40,702 nt of DNA, taken from positions 1 through 40,702 of the IMG/VR virus record IMGVR_UViG_2923350032_000005; one strand, 5' to 3'. The translations under genes and the position numbers were made by a program. Below are positions 1,722 through 36,532 of this stretch, one piece after another (position 1 is the first letter of the stretch; each line of letters opens with the position of its first letter). Under the pieces are notes generated by a model. It was given only the letters and a program-made list of their open reading frames with translations, was not told the origin of the DNA and made no database searches. This stretch comes from a virus (Duplodnaviria > Heunggongvirae > Uroviricota > Caudoviricetes).

Positions 1722-1787
1722 TGGCGGAGAGAGGGGGATTTGAACCCCCGGTAGAGTTGCCCCTACTCCGGTTTTCGAGACCGGTCC
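1722..1787 (-). tRNA. Truncated tRNA-Ser (serU-like) 3' fragment, 66 nt from anticodon stem to CCA; no 5' half. Probable integration-site (att) remnant
   Basis: Reverse complement reads GGACCGGTCTCGAAAACCGGAGTAGGGGCAACTCTACCGGGGGTTCAAATCCCCCTCTCTCCGCCA, which matches the 3' two-thirds of E. coli tRNA-Ser(CGA) as I recall it. The upstream sequence does not continue into the D-arm or acceptor 5' strand. Confidence 0.65.
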
Positions 1788-1867
1788 AATCATCAAACGA
1801 AACATAAAATTAATTCACATTATGAGGAAAAGTATCTTTTTTGTACTATGTAAATTCAAAGACTTAG

Positions 1868-4476: not shown

Positions 4477-4879
4477 GCCATTCAATATCGGGTGCTGTTG
4501 AAGTATCAACACGCATCAGCAGCACACGGTATTTCTTCCATTCGGTGAGAGTTGAAGTTTCTTCATCAGTTGCGATATCAGCATCAACAGCATCCTGACG
4601 CCAGGATATTTCACTGTCAGCTTTTTCCCGTAATTGGGATTTTTTAACTTCAGCAATAGCTATTAATTCCTTTTTGGTCGGCTGAGGAATATCTATCAGT
4701 GCTGGTTTTCCATTCAGTGTTCCAATCTGTTTTCCTGGTGGAATATCCATAAATAACTTTTTATGTTCTTCCTCACTGACTATTACACCATCATCAGGCC
4801 ACAGACCTGATGCCTCAAATTTTTCTTTCTCCGATATGGGAAAAGCCATTTGCTTTAGCGCTCCATACGTACATATCAA
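4448..4879 (-). CDS. Tail-fibre assembly chaperone (Tfa), expressed orientation
   Basis: Ends ...[26 protein letters not shown], a typical Tfa C-terminus. The ORF-track start at 4879 is TTG; an ATG ([10 protein letters not shown]) lies at 4849. Directly follows the fibre gene. Confidence 0.75.
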
Positions 4880-32294: not shown

Positions 32295-32429
32295 AGCTTT
32301 CTCCTTTATAGGTAGTTAAGTTGTTACGAGTTGCAAGAATACAACATTAACAACTTTTATCACAACTTTTAGGTGTTGGAAAGCTAAAACATAAAGTTGT
32401 AACCTCATCAAAAAAGAGAGGGATATGTT
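32295..32429. promoter_or_regulatory. OR-like divergent promoter/operator region between the Cro-like and cI-like genes
   Basis: Repeated ACAAC / GTTGT half-sites (AGTTGTTACGAGTTGC, CACAACTTTTAGGTGTTG, ATAAAGTTGTAACC); similar motifs recur at 34020-34173. Confidence 0.5.
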
Positions 32430-33116
32430 GTGAAAACACTGGCAGAACGATTAAAGATAGGTAGAGAGAAAGCTGGCATGAGCCAAGCTCAACTAGCTGA
32501 AAAAATTGGACTTTCACAACAATCTGTAGCCAAAATAGAGAATGGCGAAACTCTACAACCGCGCAAAATTAAAGAAATTGCAAAAGTTTTAGGTGTATCA
32601 CAAAAGTGGTTACAACTTGGTATTGAAGACAACGCATCCATACCTGATCTTGTTGTAAAAGAAGCAGAAAGCACCGCATTAGACCCCGATATTTTCGTAA
32701 ACATTCCTGTTTTAGATGTCGAGTTATCGGCAGGTAACGGATGTCTGGCTGAAATAGTTGAATCAGCTATTGACTGGTTTCCATTAAGAAGAGCAGATTT
32801 GAGAAAATCTGGCGTATGTGCATCTAATGCCAAGATCGTAAAAATATGGGGGAACAGTTTATTACCGGTTCTCAATAATGGAGATCTTGTTGCCGTTGAT
32901 ATTTCTCAAACCGTTCCTATTCGTGATGGCGATCTTTATGCCGTACGAGATGGTGTATTGCTAAGGGTTAAAATACTTATCAACTTACCTGACGGTGGCT
33001 TGATTCTTAGAAGCTTCAACAAAGATGAGTACCCAGATGAAATACTCACCTTTGAAGATAGACGAGCCAGAATTCATGTTATAGGTAGGGTATTCTGGTC
33101 ATCGCGAACTTGGTAA
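32430..33116 (+). CDS. cI-like repressor (HTH plus S24 LexA-like peptidase domain)
   Basis: 228 aa; GTG start with RBS; N-terminal HTH (MSQAQLAEKIGLSQQSVAKIENGE) and C-terminal S24-like region. Confidence 0.85.
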   Translation: MKTLAERLKIGREKAGMSQAQLAEKIGLSQQSVAKIENGETLQPRKIKEIAKVLGVSQKWLQLGIEDNASIPDLVVKEAESTALDPDIFVNIPVLDVELSAGNGCLAEIVESAIDWFPLRRADLRKSGVCASNAKIVKIWGNSLLPVLNNGDLVAVDISQTVPIRDGDLYAVRDGVLLRVKILINLPDGGLILRSFNKDEYPDEILTFEDRRARIHVIGRVFWSSRTW

Positions 33117-33989: not shown

Positions 33990-34019
33990 ACAACCTCCTT
34001 TTTTTGATAATCCTTGCAC

Positions 34020-34173
34020 TCCTTGGCTACTCGTTCAAACCACATAAAGTTGTTGACAACATTCAAAACCACAACTAAATTACAACTTAAAGGTGTTAAA
34101 ACAACGAACAGGCAGGACGCCCACGAAGTAGCCGCCGGTGGCGTATGAATGACCGGATGATTCGTTAAATACT
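34020..34173. promoter_or_regulatory. OL/PL-like divergent promoter/operator region
   Basis: Contains AAGTTGTTGACAACATT (TTGACA -35-like hexamer inside an inverted GTTG...CAAC) and ACAACTTAAAGGTGTTA, close copies of motifs in 32295-32429. Confidence 0.45.
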
Positions 34174-34395
34174 ATGTGTAAGAGAGCGCAAATGAACCGT
34201 TATTTCACATGCTCGTTTTGTGGCGCAAACGAGCTGCAGGCAAAAAAAATCATCGCCAAAGGCGGAAAAGATGAAGTTGCTATCTGCTCTGAGTGCGTAG
34301 TCTTGTGTGTCGGGGCATTAATCAATATCAGCACAACTATTCAGTTCACACCAAATGAGAATGCGCCTTTAGATGCGCGGAAATCTGGAGGTTAA
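34174..34395 (+). CDS. Small protein with ClpX-type C4 zinc-finger-like motif (first PL-operon gene)
   Basis: 73 aa; FTCSFCGANELQAKKIIAKGGKDEVAICSECVVLC versus the ClpX N-terminal zinc-binding domain (…[31 protein letters not shown]…, from memory). Confidence 0.55.
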   Translation: MCKRAQMNRYFTCSFCGANELQAKKIIAKGGKDEVAICSECVVLCVGALINISTTIQFTPNENAPLDARKSGG

Positions 34396-34403
34396 AGAAC
34401 AAA

Positions 34404-34679
34404 ATGAAAGTCCAGATTTTAAACAATAGTGGTGAAGTCGTTTGGTCATACGACATAGCCGCTCCTGTAGATCAGAGCGGCGATAGCTGGACCAATGGGA
34501 AACATCAGATTATGGCTGGAGTTGTGTTCTCTTTACGCCGTGCTTTAGAACAGGCTGAAGTCTTTCCATCAGACCCTGAATGGAAATGGCCTTTTTCTAT
34601 TTGTCCAAATTCGGAGAGTACATTTCAGAAAATTGGTCAGAAAGTCGCACTCGAAGAGCATCAGCCAACTGTTTCCTGA
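34404..34679 (+). CDS. Hypothetical protein
   Basis: 91 aa; GGAGG RBS before the ATG; overlaps convergently with the next ORF by 83 bp, so one of the two may be spurious or shorter. Confidence 0.4.
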   Translation: MKVQILNNSGEVVWSYDIAAPVDQSGDSWTNGKHQIMAGVVFSLRRALEQAEVFPSDPEWKWPFSICPNSESTFQKIGQKVALEEHQPTVS

Positions 34680-34842
34680 TTTTTTCAGGTAACTCGTCGG
34701 CATCGCAGAAACAACAACGCTCGATCATGTTGAAAGCCGATTCGTAGAACTGTTTTTGCTGAGTGTCGCTGAGACAGGAAAAGAGCGACGTTACGATGAT
34801 TTTATTAATTGCATTATCAAGTTCTTTTTCATCAAAAGTCAT
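34597..34842 (-). CDS. Hypothetical protein (opposite strand)
   Basis: 81 aa with an AAGGA-type RBS; contains CCFC; convergent overlap with 34404..34679. Confidence 0.35.
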   Translation of the reverse strand: MTFDEKELDNAINKIIVTSLFSCLSDTQQKQFYESAFNMIERCCFCDADELPEKIRKQLADALRVRLSDQFSEMYSPNLDK

Positions 34843-35096
34843 TTGATTTTCCTTTTATGTATACGGGCTTAAAAGGATACCACCGAGCCTGAAGTGGTGA
34901 AAAGACAGGCACATAACAGCTAAGTATTTTCAACCAGAGAGAATCCTTAGCGTTGTGGTGAATGCGGCTCAGCGCACGCGGGTTAAGGTTGAGGCTGACA
35001 GTCGACCTTCTGTGGATACCCACCCGTCTGGTGTGCAACCTTCGCCAGGCACCGGGAGGCACCCGGCACCACAACTTTATGCTGTGTGTAGTCCTG

Positions 35097-35142
35097 GCGG
35101 TACCAGTTTGTACCCTTGCTTCCGGCTGGTACCGTCCTTTTT
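35097..35142 (+). terminator. Intrinsic terminator candidate inside a structured non-coding stretch
   Basis: Stem CGGTACCAG (35098-35106) / CTGGTACCG (35126-35134) with a 19-nt loop, followed by CCTTTTT. Confidence 0.5.
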
Positions 35143-35279
35143 ACAAAACAGAGAAGAGCATCACCGGACGACGGGCTCATAACCCAATCCATCCGGGAGG
35201 CTGCCACCGCAGGTGTTCTTCTCTGTTTTGTGGAGAAACTAATCGGCCTTGCAGGGTCGATATGATGAGGAGCAGCAAA

Positions 35280-35642
35280 ATGGCTAGCGAACGCAGTACT
35301 GATGTGCAGGCATTTATCGGGGAGCTGGACGGCGGCGTATTTGAAACCAAAATCGGCGCAGTTCTCAGTGAAGTCGCTTCCGGTGTGATGAACACGAAAA
35401 CCAAAGGTAAGGTCTCACTCAACCTGGAAATCGAACCATTTGATGAGAACCGTGTGAAAATCAAACACAAACTCTCATATGTTCGCCCGACTAACCGCGG
35501 GAAAATTTCCGAAGAAGACACCACCGAAACGCCGATGTATGTCAATCGCGGTGGTCGCCTGACTATTCTGCAGGAAGACCAGGGACAATTACTGACTCTT
35601 GCCGGTGAACCTGACGGAAAACTCCGCGCAGCAGGTCATTAA
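35280..35642 (+). CDS. Hypothetical protein, YfdP-like
   Basis: ORF track 34962..35642 is an upstream extension over structured non-coding DNA; the ATG at 35280 (MASERSTDVQAF...) has GAGGAG upstream. About 120 aa. Confidence 0.45.
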   Translation: MASERSTDVQAFIGELDGGVFETKIGAVLSEVASGVMNTKTKGKVSLNLEIEPFDENRVKIKHKLSYVRPTNRGKISEEDTTETPMYVNRGGRLTILQEDQGQLLTLAGEPDGKLRAAGH

Positions 35643-35707
35643 TATCGTTCTTAATTAACTGATTATTTATCTCATCACTGAATATCTTTATATAGTGAGG
35701 ACTTATT

Positions 35708-36532
35708 ATGTCTCAGAACTTAGACGCAACCGCAATTAATCAAATCCATGCCCTTATTTCTGCTCAGGGTGTTAATGAAATTATCAGTAAGATTGGTGCC
35801 GATGCTGTGGCATTGCCTGAGAATTTCCGCATTCATGATTTGGAAAAATTTAATTTAAATCGCTTCCGTTTCCGTGGTGCGCTTTCCACTGCCAGCATCG
35901 ATGACTTTACCCGTTATTCTAAAGATCTTGCAGATGAAGGCACCCGCTGCTTTATCGATGCTGATAATATGCGTGCCGTCAGTGTGCTTAACCTGGGTAC
36001 TATTGATGAACCAGGTCACGCAGATAACACCGCCACTCTCAAACTGAAAAAGACAGCACCGTTCTCTGCTCTGTTGTCTGTTAATGGCGAGCGTAACTCC
36101 CAGAAATCACTGGCAGAATGGATTGAAGACTGGGCCGACTACCTTGTGGGCTTTGATGCTAATGGTGACACCATTCAGGCAACAAAAGCGGCTGCGGCGG
36201 TCCGTAAAATCACGATTGAAGCAAACCAGACCGCTGATTTTGAAGATAATGACTTCAGCGGCAAACGCTCCCTGATGGAGTCTGTCGAAGCGAAGACCAA
36301 AGACATTATGCCAGTGGCATTTGAATTTAAATGCATTCCGTTTGAAGGTCTGAAAGAACGTCCGTTTAAATTACGCCTCAGCATTATCACTGGCGATCGT
36401 CCGGTACTGGTTCTGCGCATTATTCAGCTGGAGGCGGTGCAGGAAGAAATGGCTAACGAATTTCGTGATCTGCTTGTTGAGAAATTCAAGGACAGCAAAG
36501 TAGAAACCTTTATTGGTACTTTCACCGCCTGA
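35708..36532 (+). CDS. DUF2303-family protein, YfdQ-like
   Basis: 274 aa, [20 protein letters not shown]...; resembles CPS-53 YfdQ from memory; good RBS (GTGAGGA). Confidence 0.6.

Follow-up and report, generated by a model that had tools for sequence, protein, structure and literature searches.

Enterobacterial prophages encode small RNAs (sRNAs) of the STnc100 family, members of which are expressed in lysogens of Escherichia coli O157, with 11 copies in EDL933, one of them confirmed by Northern blot (PMC5331693); the copy after stx2B is the Hfq-bound RNA EcOnc27/sRNA103 (PMC12711010). The STnc100 family is related to PasD (bioRxiv 10.64898/2026.05.13.724894). At the dicF locus of prophage Qin of E. 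coli K-12, dicF has no internal promoter and a 190-nt DicF species has its 5' end made by ribonuclease (RNase) III (bioRxiv 10.1101/2023.04.14.536235), and RNase III also cuts the read-through RNA just 3' of the dicF terminator, which yields the 72-nt DicF (PMC5069750). Here we describe a 437-bp gap upstream of the gene yfdP (positions 34843-35279) in a 40,702-nt stretch of Caudoviricetes DNA, IMG/VR record IMGVR_UViG_2923350032_000005 (hereafter the window), and compare it with these systems. The gap is very probably non-coding and holds two conserved structured RNAs parted by a terminator: element 1, which is of the STnc100/dicF-locus kind, and element 2, a three-way junction tipped with a copy of the initiator-tRNA anticodon stem-loop.

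A preliminary description of the gap, made from its letters alone, had noted GC-rich (guanine plus cytosine) DNA, no convincing open reading frame (ORF), and a terminator-like hairpin followed by a 15-bp inverted repeat, and had offered three readings, namely an sRNA, a site of processing, or a structure that controls translation. The observation is confirmed and the interpretation largely supported by the present analysis, which adds two features, namely that the upstream 190 nt form a pseudoknotted, tRNA-related fold and that the 'loop' of the repeat holds the anticodon stem-loop copy. Where the whole 437 bp had been described as structured, the rightward part carries the two RNA elements, and the left 75 nt (34843-34918) belong to neither. 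The GC fraction is indeed raised, at 0.55-0.57 in 34900-35200 against 0.40-0.45 in the flanks.

Element 1 and the dicF locus

Element 1 occupies about 34919-35142 (the features of both RNAs and of the yfdP leader are on the plus strand). An Rfam scan of the region at E<=10, a check that the preliminary description had proposed along with a comparative alignment, returned STnc100, a weak DicF match and noise only. The STnc100 model (RF02076) aligns over its whole length, positions 1-206, with 34922-35144, and this full-length match stays below the curated threshold (41.2 bits against 47; E=2.3e-7 in a 901-nt search and 1e-5 in the whole window). The consensus architecture of the family, consisting of a closing stem, five internal hairpins and a 3' terminator hairpin, is found here, with the same helices in the minimum-free-energy fold, and the invariant blocks UGGUGAAU and CACCGGGAGGCACCCGGCACCA, common to 103 distinct phage copies, are both in the window. 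Within the known prophage sRNA family of the STnc100/DicF type, element 1 is a divergent member. It shares with the STnc100/PasD sRNAs of lambdoid and Stx prophages the helix order, the invariant blocks, the general U-N-N-G-C loop of helix P2, the prophage location, a terminator after a 20-60-nt linker and the full-length model alignment; it differs in its score below threshold, in its interior, in P2 (GCGGC/GCaCGC and not CCCCC/GGaGGGG) and in its place, which is the early-left operon before yfdP, whereas those sRNAs lie in the late region after stx2B or near Q.

The core of element 1 (34952-35075, about 125 nt) is of STnc100 type and tRNA-related. Its closing stem P1 (34952-60/35067-75) is followed by a junction J1/2 of AAU (34961-63), by P2 (34964-79; loop UCAGC in the window) and by P3 (34980-82/35023-25), between whose 5' and 3' strands lies a variable insert. 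A pseudoknot pairs AAGGUUG (34985-91) with CAACCUU (35036-42), the latter within the loop of P5 (35026-33/35043-50), and P6, CCGGG-AGGCA-CCCGG (35052-66), abuts the 3' strand of P1. Directly 5' of the core, folding gives a hairpin P0 (GCUAAGuAUUUUC/GAGAAUcCUUAGC, 34919-34951), whose 3' arm is a degenerate version of a pyrimidine-rich UGCUCUY motif found 2-4 nt before P1 in relatives. P0 stands at the place equivalent to the 5' end that RNase III gives to the 190-nt Qin DicF species (bioRxiv 10.1101/2023.04.14.536235), and by this analogy may be where the 5' end is processed.

A scan of IMG/VR with the invariant sequence CCGGGAGGCACCCGGCAC gave 141 copies on at least 120 contigs, corresponding to 103 distinct cores of 106-142 nt. 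Aligning the cores with MAFFT gave unreliable columns in their variable middle, and this alignment was replaced by an anchored structural parse with pair counts and swap or shuffle controls. Among 96 distinct variants, P1, P2, P3 and P5 were paired in 74-100%, with up to six pair types per position. The pseudoknot reached at least 6 bp in 80% of the variants, against 13-18% when loops were swapped between variants or shuffled; since the parse itself picks the pseudoknot columns, only these controls count as evidence for it. P6 is fixed by the search pattern, but relatives reached independently of that pattern show covariation in it (GGUGG/CCACC in Klebsiella phage Kp4866-6, CCUGG/CCAGG in Qin), with the loop AGGCA unchanged in Kp4866-6 and K-12 Qin. 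Compensatory changes were found in both elements by comparative alignment. Cores of Salmonella phages ST64B and 118970_sal3, Cronobacter phage phiES15 and the P1-like phages SJ46/JL22 score 34-42 bits on the STnc100 model; in SJ46/JL22 the core lies 25 nt before the tciA start and is followed by no terminator. A terminator follows P1 by 40-65 nt in 38 of 51 representatives, and about 10 lead straight into a ribosome-binding site. In the accessible parts of the literature on the STnc100 family, neither the pseudoknot nor a relation to tRNA is mentioned (bioRxiv 10.64898/2026.05.13.724894; PMC12370729; PMC12711010).

Between the core and the terminator runs a single-stranded linker (UUUAUGCUGUGUGUAGUCCU, 35076-35095), the conserved part of which, GCUGUGUGUAGUC, is kept in the window, ST64B, sal3, phiES15 and Kp4866-6 and stands at the place of the 5' part of DicF; on this analogy it may serve as seed and RNase E entry site. 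The intrinsic terminator of the early-left leader follows at 35096-35142. The preliminary claim of a terminator-like hairpin with a U-tract holds, as a 13-bp stem (35096-35108/35124-35136; core 35098-35106/35126-35134 with 9/9 pairs) precedes CUUUUU (35137-35142), and its fold (-23.1 kcal/mol) surpasses that of shuffled sequences (-12.5 ± 2.5; z=-4.2, 0/200 as good). A simple terminator scanner missed this hairpin because its loop exceeds 8 nt. The 5' arm UGGCGGUACCAGUUU is nearly identical to that of the DicF terminator, UGGCGGUAUCAGUUU.

The order in K-12 Qin is dicA (the CI-like repressor), ydfA, ydfB, ydfC, a core, DicF, a second core and dicB. There, DicF lies in the 3' part of a repressor-controlled early leader, at an intrinsic terminator and before a kil/dicB-type gene, and element 1 has the corresponding position. 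The Qin core before DicF has the same P1 flanks, with an interior of the type seen in Stx2c phages, and DicF itself consists of linker plus terminator, so that the 190-nt DicF species corresponds to core, linker and terminator. The 5' untranslated region (5'UTR) of dicB holds a core of the same type as in the window, and this core is closed by a long stem, read just downstream of the dicF terminator. Given this order and the published processing of DicF, the window locus is read as an SfV-type counterpart of dicF. Both loci combine a CI-like repressor, small ORFs, a core with a GUUGUGG/CCACAAC closing stem, linker and terminator with near-identical 5' arms, and, ahead of an early gene, a second structured RNA with a long closing stem; the dicB leader holds the core type of the window. 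The window locus differs in its linker ('seed'), in its insignificant score on the Rfam DicF model, in having a core interior unlike that before dicF, in a second RNA that is an anticodon-arm mimic and not a second core, and in its downstream gene, yfdP and not dicB. The relative L216 scores 29.6 bits (E=0.004) on the DicF model. An sRNA ending at the terminator, one of the possibilities raised beforehand, is thus supported by the end-to-end STnc100 alignment and by the dicF position in Qin.

Several observations accompany the core family. STnc100-type cores often occur two to four per viral contig and often about 250-490 nt apart, as in L017 (2331, 2998, 3253), L078 (4466, 4720, 5437, 8493), L027, L038, L013 and L031; in such contigs the interior and the pseudoknot sequence of each copy differ. 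The two Qin cores (L307:2240-2380, upstream of dicF, and 2448-2600, a GCGG-type STnc100-like core in the dicB 5'UTR) are unannotated in the K-12 record. In the variant of phage mEp460 (L128:2345-2500), the loops of P2 (AGGCUGAU) and P6 (AGAUCAGCA) share a 6-nt complementarity, GCUGAU/AUCAGC, which hints at a contact between the loops like that of the tRNA elbow; in the window type only GC/GC pairing is possible between them. ST64B and an Stx2c phage each carry, in their rightward early region and about 2.4 kb away from the element 1 locus, a match to the Hfq-binding sRNA isrK that exceeds its curated threshold of 50 (64.3 bits at L002:21-97 and 60.1 bits at L129:25-101, both on the minus strand).

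Element 2, a mimic of the initiator-tRNA anticodon arm

The perfect 15-bp inverted repeat noted beforehand is exact, ACAAAACAGAGAAGA at 35143-35157 being the reverse complement of 35217-35231 with 59 nt between, and it extends to about 20 bp (25-nt arms, 84% complementary). It had been drawn as a hairpin with a 59-nt loop; the repeat and its spacing stand, but the 'loop' folds, and the whole is a three-way junction. Element 2 (35143-35231) comprises a basal stem of 19-20 bp (35143-62/35212-31), arm A (CCGGA 35164-68/UCCGG 35192-96, capped by GGG-CUCAUAA-CCC at 35173-85) and a short arm B (35201-12). The 89-nt unit folds at -41 kcal/mol, against -22.1 ± 3.2 for shuffled sequences (z=-5.9, 0/200 as good).

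The tip of arm A, the 14-mer CGGGCUCAUAACCC (35172-35185), has exactly the sequence of nt 28-41 in the initiator tRNA-fMet of E. coli (metZ), where these positions form the three G-C pairs and the anticodon loop, with a chance expectation of 0.01 per window. The 7-nt CUCAUAA loop on three consecutive G-C pairs is conserved in relatives: in 124 copies gathered by a pattern that left the loop free, the loop and the GGG/CCC pairs are almost invariant. In a set of 20 diverse copies, compensatory changes occur at 7 of 30 pairs, the paired cells amount to 98.8% (94.1% when shuffled and 42-52% when partners are slid), and the covariation score of 0.188, against 0.105, was reached by 0/500 shuffles. 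A pattern scan found element 2 in at least 120 viral contigs, and representative genomes gave matches in Escherichia, Shigella, Citrobacter, Enterobacter, Klebsiella, Raoultella, Kosakonia, Leclercia, Phytobacter, Mixta, Pantoea, Erwinia and others. Rfam held no match to element 2, and literature searches with its invariant sequences and for yfdP, ymfH and a phage initiator-tRNA decoy found no prior description; it is apparently an undescribed RNA.

Three types were distinguished by the surroundings of the invariant tip. Type I, that of the window, begins right after the U-tract of the terminator and stands ahead of the start of a gene. In Klebsiella-type phages, type II closes the tRNA arrays that lie downstream of Q, at a distance of about 6-20 nt from a preceding tRNA-Arg, tRNA-Thr or tRNA-Asn; its basal stem has 6-7 bp and its end is GGCC(A/G)CCA. 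In type III, arm B is much larger. As an example of type II, 71-nt tRNA-like units without a D arm, with a CAU anticodon-like loop and an encoded CCA, were seen in L130:1503-1582, L141, L142, L164, L170, L200, L203 and others, and received no ARAGORN or Rfam tRNA call.

The yfdP leader (35232-35279) contains GGAGAAAC, able to extend the basal stem by pairing with the U-tract. It also has a small hairpin (35242-49/35254-61), swapped for a different hairpin in ST64B and Klebsiella phages, and a Shine-Dalgarno sequence GAGGAG (35267-72) before the ATG at 35280. A T-box-like pairing of the element 1 linker (UUAUG) with the CAU loop of element 2 was also considered and set aside, the AUG being not conserved in ST64B/phiES15.

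The basal stem is a covarying duplex of 19-20 bp, extendable by U-A/U-G pairs with the U-tract, and RNase III acts on duplexes of about two turns (at least 20 bp). Its position directly beyond a terminator makes it a plausible RNase III site, by analogy with the lambda sib and N-leader sites, where a long duplex likewise forms only in read-through RNA just past an intrinsic terminator of the leftward operon, and with Qin, where RNase III cuts at the corresponding place; the processing site proposed beforehand is to this extent supported. Unlike those lambda sites, however, the duplex closes a conserved three-way junction with a sequence-constrained tip, and element 2 is for this reason more than a cleavage site. 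A miniature inverted-repeat transposable element or a DNA-level palindrome was rejected as the nature of the repeat, because the context of the copies is constant (each follows a terminator or belongs to a tRNA array) and their changes, including G-U pairs, are compensatory at the RNA level.

The translational control structure of the preliminary description would make element 2 a cis regulator of downstream translation, whose mimic binds the P site of the 30S subunit with initiation factor 3 (IF3), or methionyl-tRNA synthetase (MetRS), near the yfdP start. A model for this exists in the thrS operator, which mimics the anticodon arm of tRNA-Thr to bind threonyl-tRNA synthetase (ThrRS); moreover, the three G-C pairs and the CUCAUAA loop are the initiator-specific features read in the P site. 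Element 2 lies about 50-100 nt before a start codon, a conserved small hairpin and a strong Shine-Dalgarno sequence intervene, and both the G-C pairs and the loop are under strong purifying selection. The downstream genes vary, however, some being yfdP-like and others having N-termini of at least two unrelated kinds; the short-stemmed version, which closes tRNA arrays, is free-standing, ends in CCA and is followed by a terminator, with no gene start close by; and no conserved complementarity between the loop and the start region was seen by inspection. We therefore regard cis regulation as unlikely, and the free-standing version in tRNA arrays together with the varied downstream genes favours an RNA acting in trans.

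Coding potential and annotation

The claim that the gap lacks a convincing ORF is borne out among homologues, in which no frame is conserved; the 226-aa ORF at 34962-35642 is a mere open extension of yfdP. Coding of a YmfH-like product, or of a long N-terminal extension of YfdP, might be argued from this ORF, which stays open through to the yfdP stop, from the pseudogene drawn by the Prokaryotic Genome Annotation Pipeline (PGAP) and from the name ymfH in K-12. Against it, the frame of the yfdP start, counted from the conserved upstream nucleotides, is a different one in each of ST64B, 118970_sal3 and Kp4866-6, the lengths of indels among homologues are not divisible by three, the substitutions compensate for one another in the RNA, and no ribosome-binding site precedes 34955 or 34962, whereas yfdP has its own strong one at 35267-72. 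A protein-coding gap is thus extremely improbable.

In K-12, ymfH of the e14 prophage (b1142; L242:5070-5381) is homologous to window 34955-35265 with 91% identity, and the 'YmfH' ORF is a chimera that traverses all three frames of the intact window sequence. This explains why PGAP calls a 'frameshifted' hypothetical protein or pseudogene at the same interval (L007 6113-6423), and ymfH is probably not a protein gene. Over-expressed 'ymfH' has been reported to trigger the RcaT toxin of retron-Sen2 (bioRxiv 10.1101/2020.06.22.160242); given the three-frame chimera, this may be an effect of the RNA. In e14, the loop of element 2 now reads UUAAUAA and P6 of element 1 lacks an A in its loop, with the stems intact, which is the expectation for relaxed selection on functional loops. 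Reading the locus as two RNA genes corrects a widespread annotation error, in which it appears as a hypothetical or frameshifted protein and, in e14, as ymfH.

Relatedness to tRNA

Among phages, the flanks AGUGCUCU..CGUUGUGG and CCACAAC are kept upstream of the linker and terminator, and the slot between them holds 42 different interiors. Some occupants of this slot pass the curated threshold of 29 of the Rfam tRNA model (L222 with 43.9 bits and L216 with 29.5 bits). Both match the full-length tRNA model with a 60-64-nt insert, their acceptor stem corresponding to P1, their D arm lying at the place of P2 and their T arm at that of P6; in L216 the T arm, CCGGG-UUCGAGU-CCCGG, has the same stem as P6 of the window. 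Since slot occupants score as tRNA with matching arms, the STnc100-type core looks like a strongly remodelled tRNA, with shortened T and D loops and a pseudoknotted domain replacing the anticodon arm.

The comparison group comprises tRNA and tRNA-like RNAs (the tRNA-like domain of transfer-messenger RNA, the bacterial Y RNA YrlA, the thrS operator mimic and viral tRNA-like structures). Like a tRNA, element 1 has a closing stem of 7-9 bp stacked directly on a 5-bp hairpin beside its 3' strand; on the 5' side, a 3-nt spacer leads to another hairpin, and its positional homologues score as tRNA; unlike a tRNA, it has a pseudoknot at the place of the anticodon arm. Element 2 shares with tRNA-fMet the identical CUCAUAA loop and three G-C pairs, and in its short-stemmed version, within a tRNA array, N-CCA comes after a stem of 6-7 bp; element 2 departs from tRNA in having no D arm and a 20-bp basal stem. 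In both window elements, CCA, the T-loop/D-loop consensus and the cloverleaf are absent.

The 42 interior types between identical flanks, as at a recombination hot spot, together with occupants that still score as tRNA and with the tRNA arrays that lambdoid phages carry nearby, would suit a different explanation, by which both elements are decaying relics of phage tRNA genes or mosaic recombination joints, with the provision of a terminator as their sole function. Decay, however, is hard to reconcile with compensatory changes that preserve the helices and the pseudoknot, or with loops that are near-invariant across Escherichia, Salmonella, Klebsiella, Erwinia, Pantoea and others, and in the truly defective e14 prophage it is precisely those invariant positions that are mutated. 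We consider the relic explanation decidedly unlikely.

Proposed processing and function

From the anatomy of the locus, the covariation, the non-coding character, the resemblance to STnc100, the synteny with dicF and the tRNA relatedness of the slot, we propose a chain of events in which the gap is a processing and termination cassette of the SfV-like early-left operon, similar to dicF, that releases small RNAs. Taken as a whole this chain is somewhat more probable than its absence; the promoter, all cleavage events, Hfq dependence and any function in trans are inferred. Transcription would start at a repressor-controlled promoter about 0.9 kb upstream and pass through two small genes and then element 1. 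Polymerases stopping at the terminator (35138-35142) would leave an STnc100-type RNA of about 190-225 nt, whose 5' end could be made by an endonuclease at or just before P0/P1: RNase III or possibly RNase P, the latter because of the stack of P1 and P6, which resembles a tRNA acceptor stem and T arm. Trimming by RNase E might then give an sRNA of about 60-65 nt, made of linker and terminator, that acts in trans with Hfq.

Read-through would transcribe element 2, whose basal stem of 20-25 bp, abutting the U-tract and lengthened by pairing of GGAGAAA with it, would be a natural substrate of RNase III. A cut in this stem would separate the upstream sRNA from the yfdP-yfdQ-yfdR-xis-int mRNA and, at the same time, free a small RNA tipped with the copy of the initiator-tRNA anticodon stem-loop. 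The mimic might titrate an anticodon nuclease, bind MetRS or the 30S P site, or control yfdP translation in cis. An enteric toxin, VapC/MvpT, cleaves tRNA-fMet within the anticodon loop, and our best guess is that the mimic titrates a protein that recognizes the anticodon arm, such as a VapC-type anticodon nuclease or MetRS.

In a broader and more speculative form, both elements would be tRNA mimics expressed early by temperate enterobacterial phages, element 2 being a free-standing decoy that shields the initiator tRNA of the infected cell from an anticodon nuclease such as VapC/MvpT, or captures MetRS or the 30S P site; we hold this to be doubtful. The decoy would be released by RNase III here, and by tRNA-processing enzymes where it closes a tRNA array.

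Several points weigh against the proposed reading of the locus. The window copy falls short of the curated STnc100 threshold (41.2 against 47 bits), and the Rfam DicF model (RF00039) gives 15.7 bits (E=1.7, at 35083-35137) against a threshold of 48. The linker differs from the DicF seed, and its complementarity to ftsZ does not rise above shuffles: in RNAduplex comparisons with ftsZ -60..+30, the window RNA had a shuffle fraction of 0.65-0.87, in a weak test in which DicF itself reached only 0.12. A search for linker targets within the window likewise gave nothing above chance or shuffles. The promoter scan found no recognizable sigma-70 promoter beside the RNA, and a leftward gene that looks real (34597-34842) separates the RNA from the promoter proposed for it. 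Qin serves as the model for the putative steps of RNase III, RNase E and RNase P, and the strong terminator before xis/int implies a mechanism of antitermination or leak. Neither window element was recognized as tRNA by ARAGORN (34000-36000) or by the Rfam tRNA model (E<=10, 34600-35500), so that their tRNA relatedness rests on the positional homologues and the 14-nt identity.

A promoter of its own for the RNA is unsupported, as the scan gave no sigma-70 match and the inspected upstream alignments showed no conserved plus-strand -35/-10; this is explained if the locus is a counterpart of dicF. The need to pass the terminator leads to another rival, in which element 1 would be a cis-acting processive antiterminator of the early-left operon, either put-like or nut-like (a boxA-like sequence plus structured RNA), and would alter RNA polymerase to let it read through the next terminator. 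Like HK022 put and lambda nut, element 1 belongs to the leader RNA of an early-left operon, upstream of a terminator to be passed. It always lies between the repressor-side promoter region and the early genes, in the same orientation, and a strong terminator directly follows that must be passed for yfdPQR, kil/gam (phiES15) or xis/int. Of 24 GCGG-type copies, about 22 point the same way as the gene that follows, a count based on crude gene calls in which eight ORFs antisense to yfdP were judged artefacts. P1-like phages and Qin have the core directly in the tciA/dicB 5'UTR with no terminator, a boxA-resembling UGCUCUY stands 2-4 nt before P1, and no N-like gene is evident.

The put RNA, however, is about 70 nt long, with two stem-loops and copies downstream of both early promoters (PMC9378689), whereas the core has 125 nt and is multi-helical, pseudoknotted and present once in the window, with none in the rightward operon; HK022 put RNA was rejected on this architecture, and fold and sequence are unrelated to put/nut. 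Canonical members, moreover, often precede convergent genes (55 co-oriented against 41 opposed, rough orientation counts only, the ORF-based neighbour analysis being crude and over-calling spurious ORFs such as the antisense of yfdP), and the boxA-like motif of the window is degenerate and paired in P0. The arrangement in Qin is explained by processing, and read-through products past dicF were not detected (bioRxiv 10.1101/2023.04.14.536235). Antitermination by element 1 is thus an improbable account of the locus.

The complex pseudoknotted fold with invariant junction and loop nucleotides, followed by either a terminator or a ribosome-binding site and start codon, is also the classical signature of a ligand-sensing riboswitch, with element 1 as the 'aptamer' and the terminator or ribosome-binding site as expression platform. 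No mutually exclusive pairing of P1 and terminator was seen in the folds or by inspection, however; the linker is variable (20-60 nt), the downstream genes are without a shared metabolic theme, many copies precede convergent genes, and family members accumulate as stable Hfq-bound sRNAs (PMC12711010). A riboswitch is in our view very unlikely. Neither antitermination, a riboswitch, tRNA relics nor protein coding fits as well as two structured RNAs in a dicF-like cassette.

That reading links STnc100, PasD and the 190-nt DicF precursor as one modular leader cassette, made of core, linker, terminator and second structured RNA, and gives the STnc100 'sRNA' a fold with a pseudoknot and a relation to tRNA, neither of which enters into simple models of seed pairing. 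The mimic is a testable lead, being a near-invariant 14-nt copy of the initiator-tRNA anticodon stem-loop in temperate phages of many Enterobacterales, packaged for excision. If it does titrate an anticodon nuclease, MetRS or the P site, an RNA decoy would be added to the interplay between phages and tRNA-targeting defence; and if both elements are tRNA mimics, they would form a new class of RNA-based anti-defence or host-takeover factors, and the STnc100, PasD and DicF-precursor RNAs would be recast as tRNA-derived scaffolds.

Gene order and further observations

The 437-bp stretch belongs to an SfV-like temperate phage integrated beside tRNA-Thr(CGU) (39262-39334, minus strand), which is the sole Rfam match in the window at curated thresholds. 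It has 99.5% identity with Shigella phage SfV, where it is located between the cI side and orf32/yfdP, and its DNA was present in half of the complete E. coli genomes searched (2,784 of 5,426); the copies of E. coli GF8 and CDF6 are 100% identical to it. In plus-strand order, a cI-like repressor gene (32430-33116) comes first, followed by a leftward BRCT-domain gene, a ClpX-type zinc-finger ORF (34174-34395, plus strand), a 91-aa ORF (34404-34679, plus strand) that matches phrog_3195, a leftward 81-aa ORF (34597-34842, minus strand) that matches phrog_3311 and has a strong ribosome-binding site AAAGGAAAATCAAATG, the gap with its two RNAs, yfdP (35280-35642, plus strand), and then yfdQ, yfdR, xis and int.

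Upstream of the ClpX-type zinc-finger ORF, a promoter-like TTGACA-17-TAAATT was read by eye at 34053-34081. Operator-like AAGTTGT/ACAACTT repeats occur at 32310-32410, between cI and cro, and around this site at 34045-34100. Judged by these motifs, the site and its surrounding repeats are probably the early-left promoter/operator, which is without annotation in the SfV record.

A conserved module, GGATACCACC..GCCTG-N14-CAGGC-ACATAAC (34875-34917, strand not assigned), lies upstream of and outside both RNAs and recurs in the window, phiES15, sal3, L010, L072, L122 and L104. In several unrelated phages it adjoins the start of a leftward gene, and its minus strand carries a -10-like TATCCT (TATACT in phiES15) and a weak terminator-like hairpin; the -10-like sequence suggests a possible promoter role. 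In phiES15, L010, L072 and L122, unrelated leftward ORFs begin at the equivalent relative position. The convergent ORFs 34404-34679 and 34597-34842 overlap by 83 nt, each with its own PHROG family, and the leftward one is without annotation in PGAP and in SfV.

Elsewhere in the window, positions 1725-1790 (minus strand) give sub-threshold tRNA-type Rfam matches and hold the 3' half of a tRNA-Ser gene, with the anticodon loop at one end and CCA at the other; this looks like an attachment-site relic of another integrated element. At 4497-4680 (minus strand) there is a full-length, sub-threshold match to IS009, another prophage-associated RNA family (54.9 bits against 117, E=6e-10).

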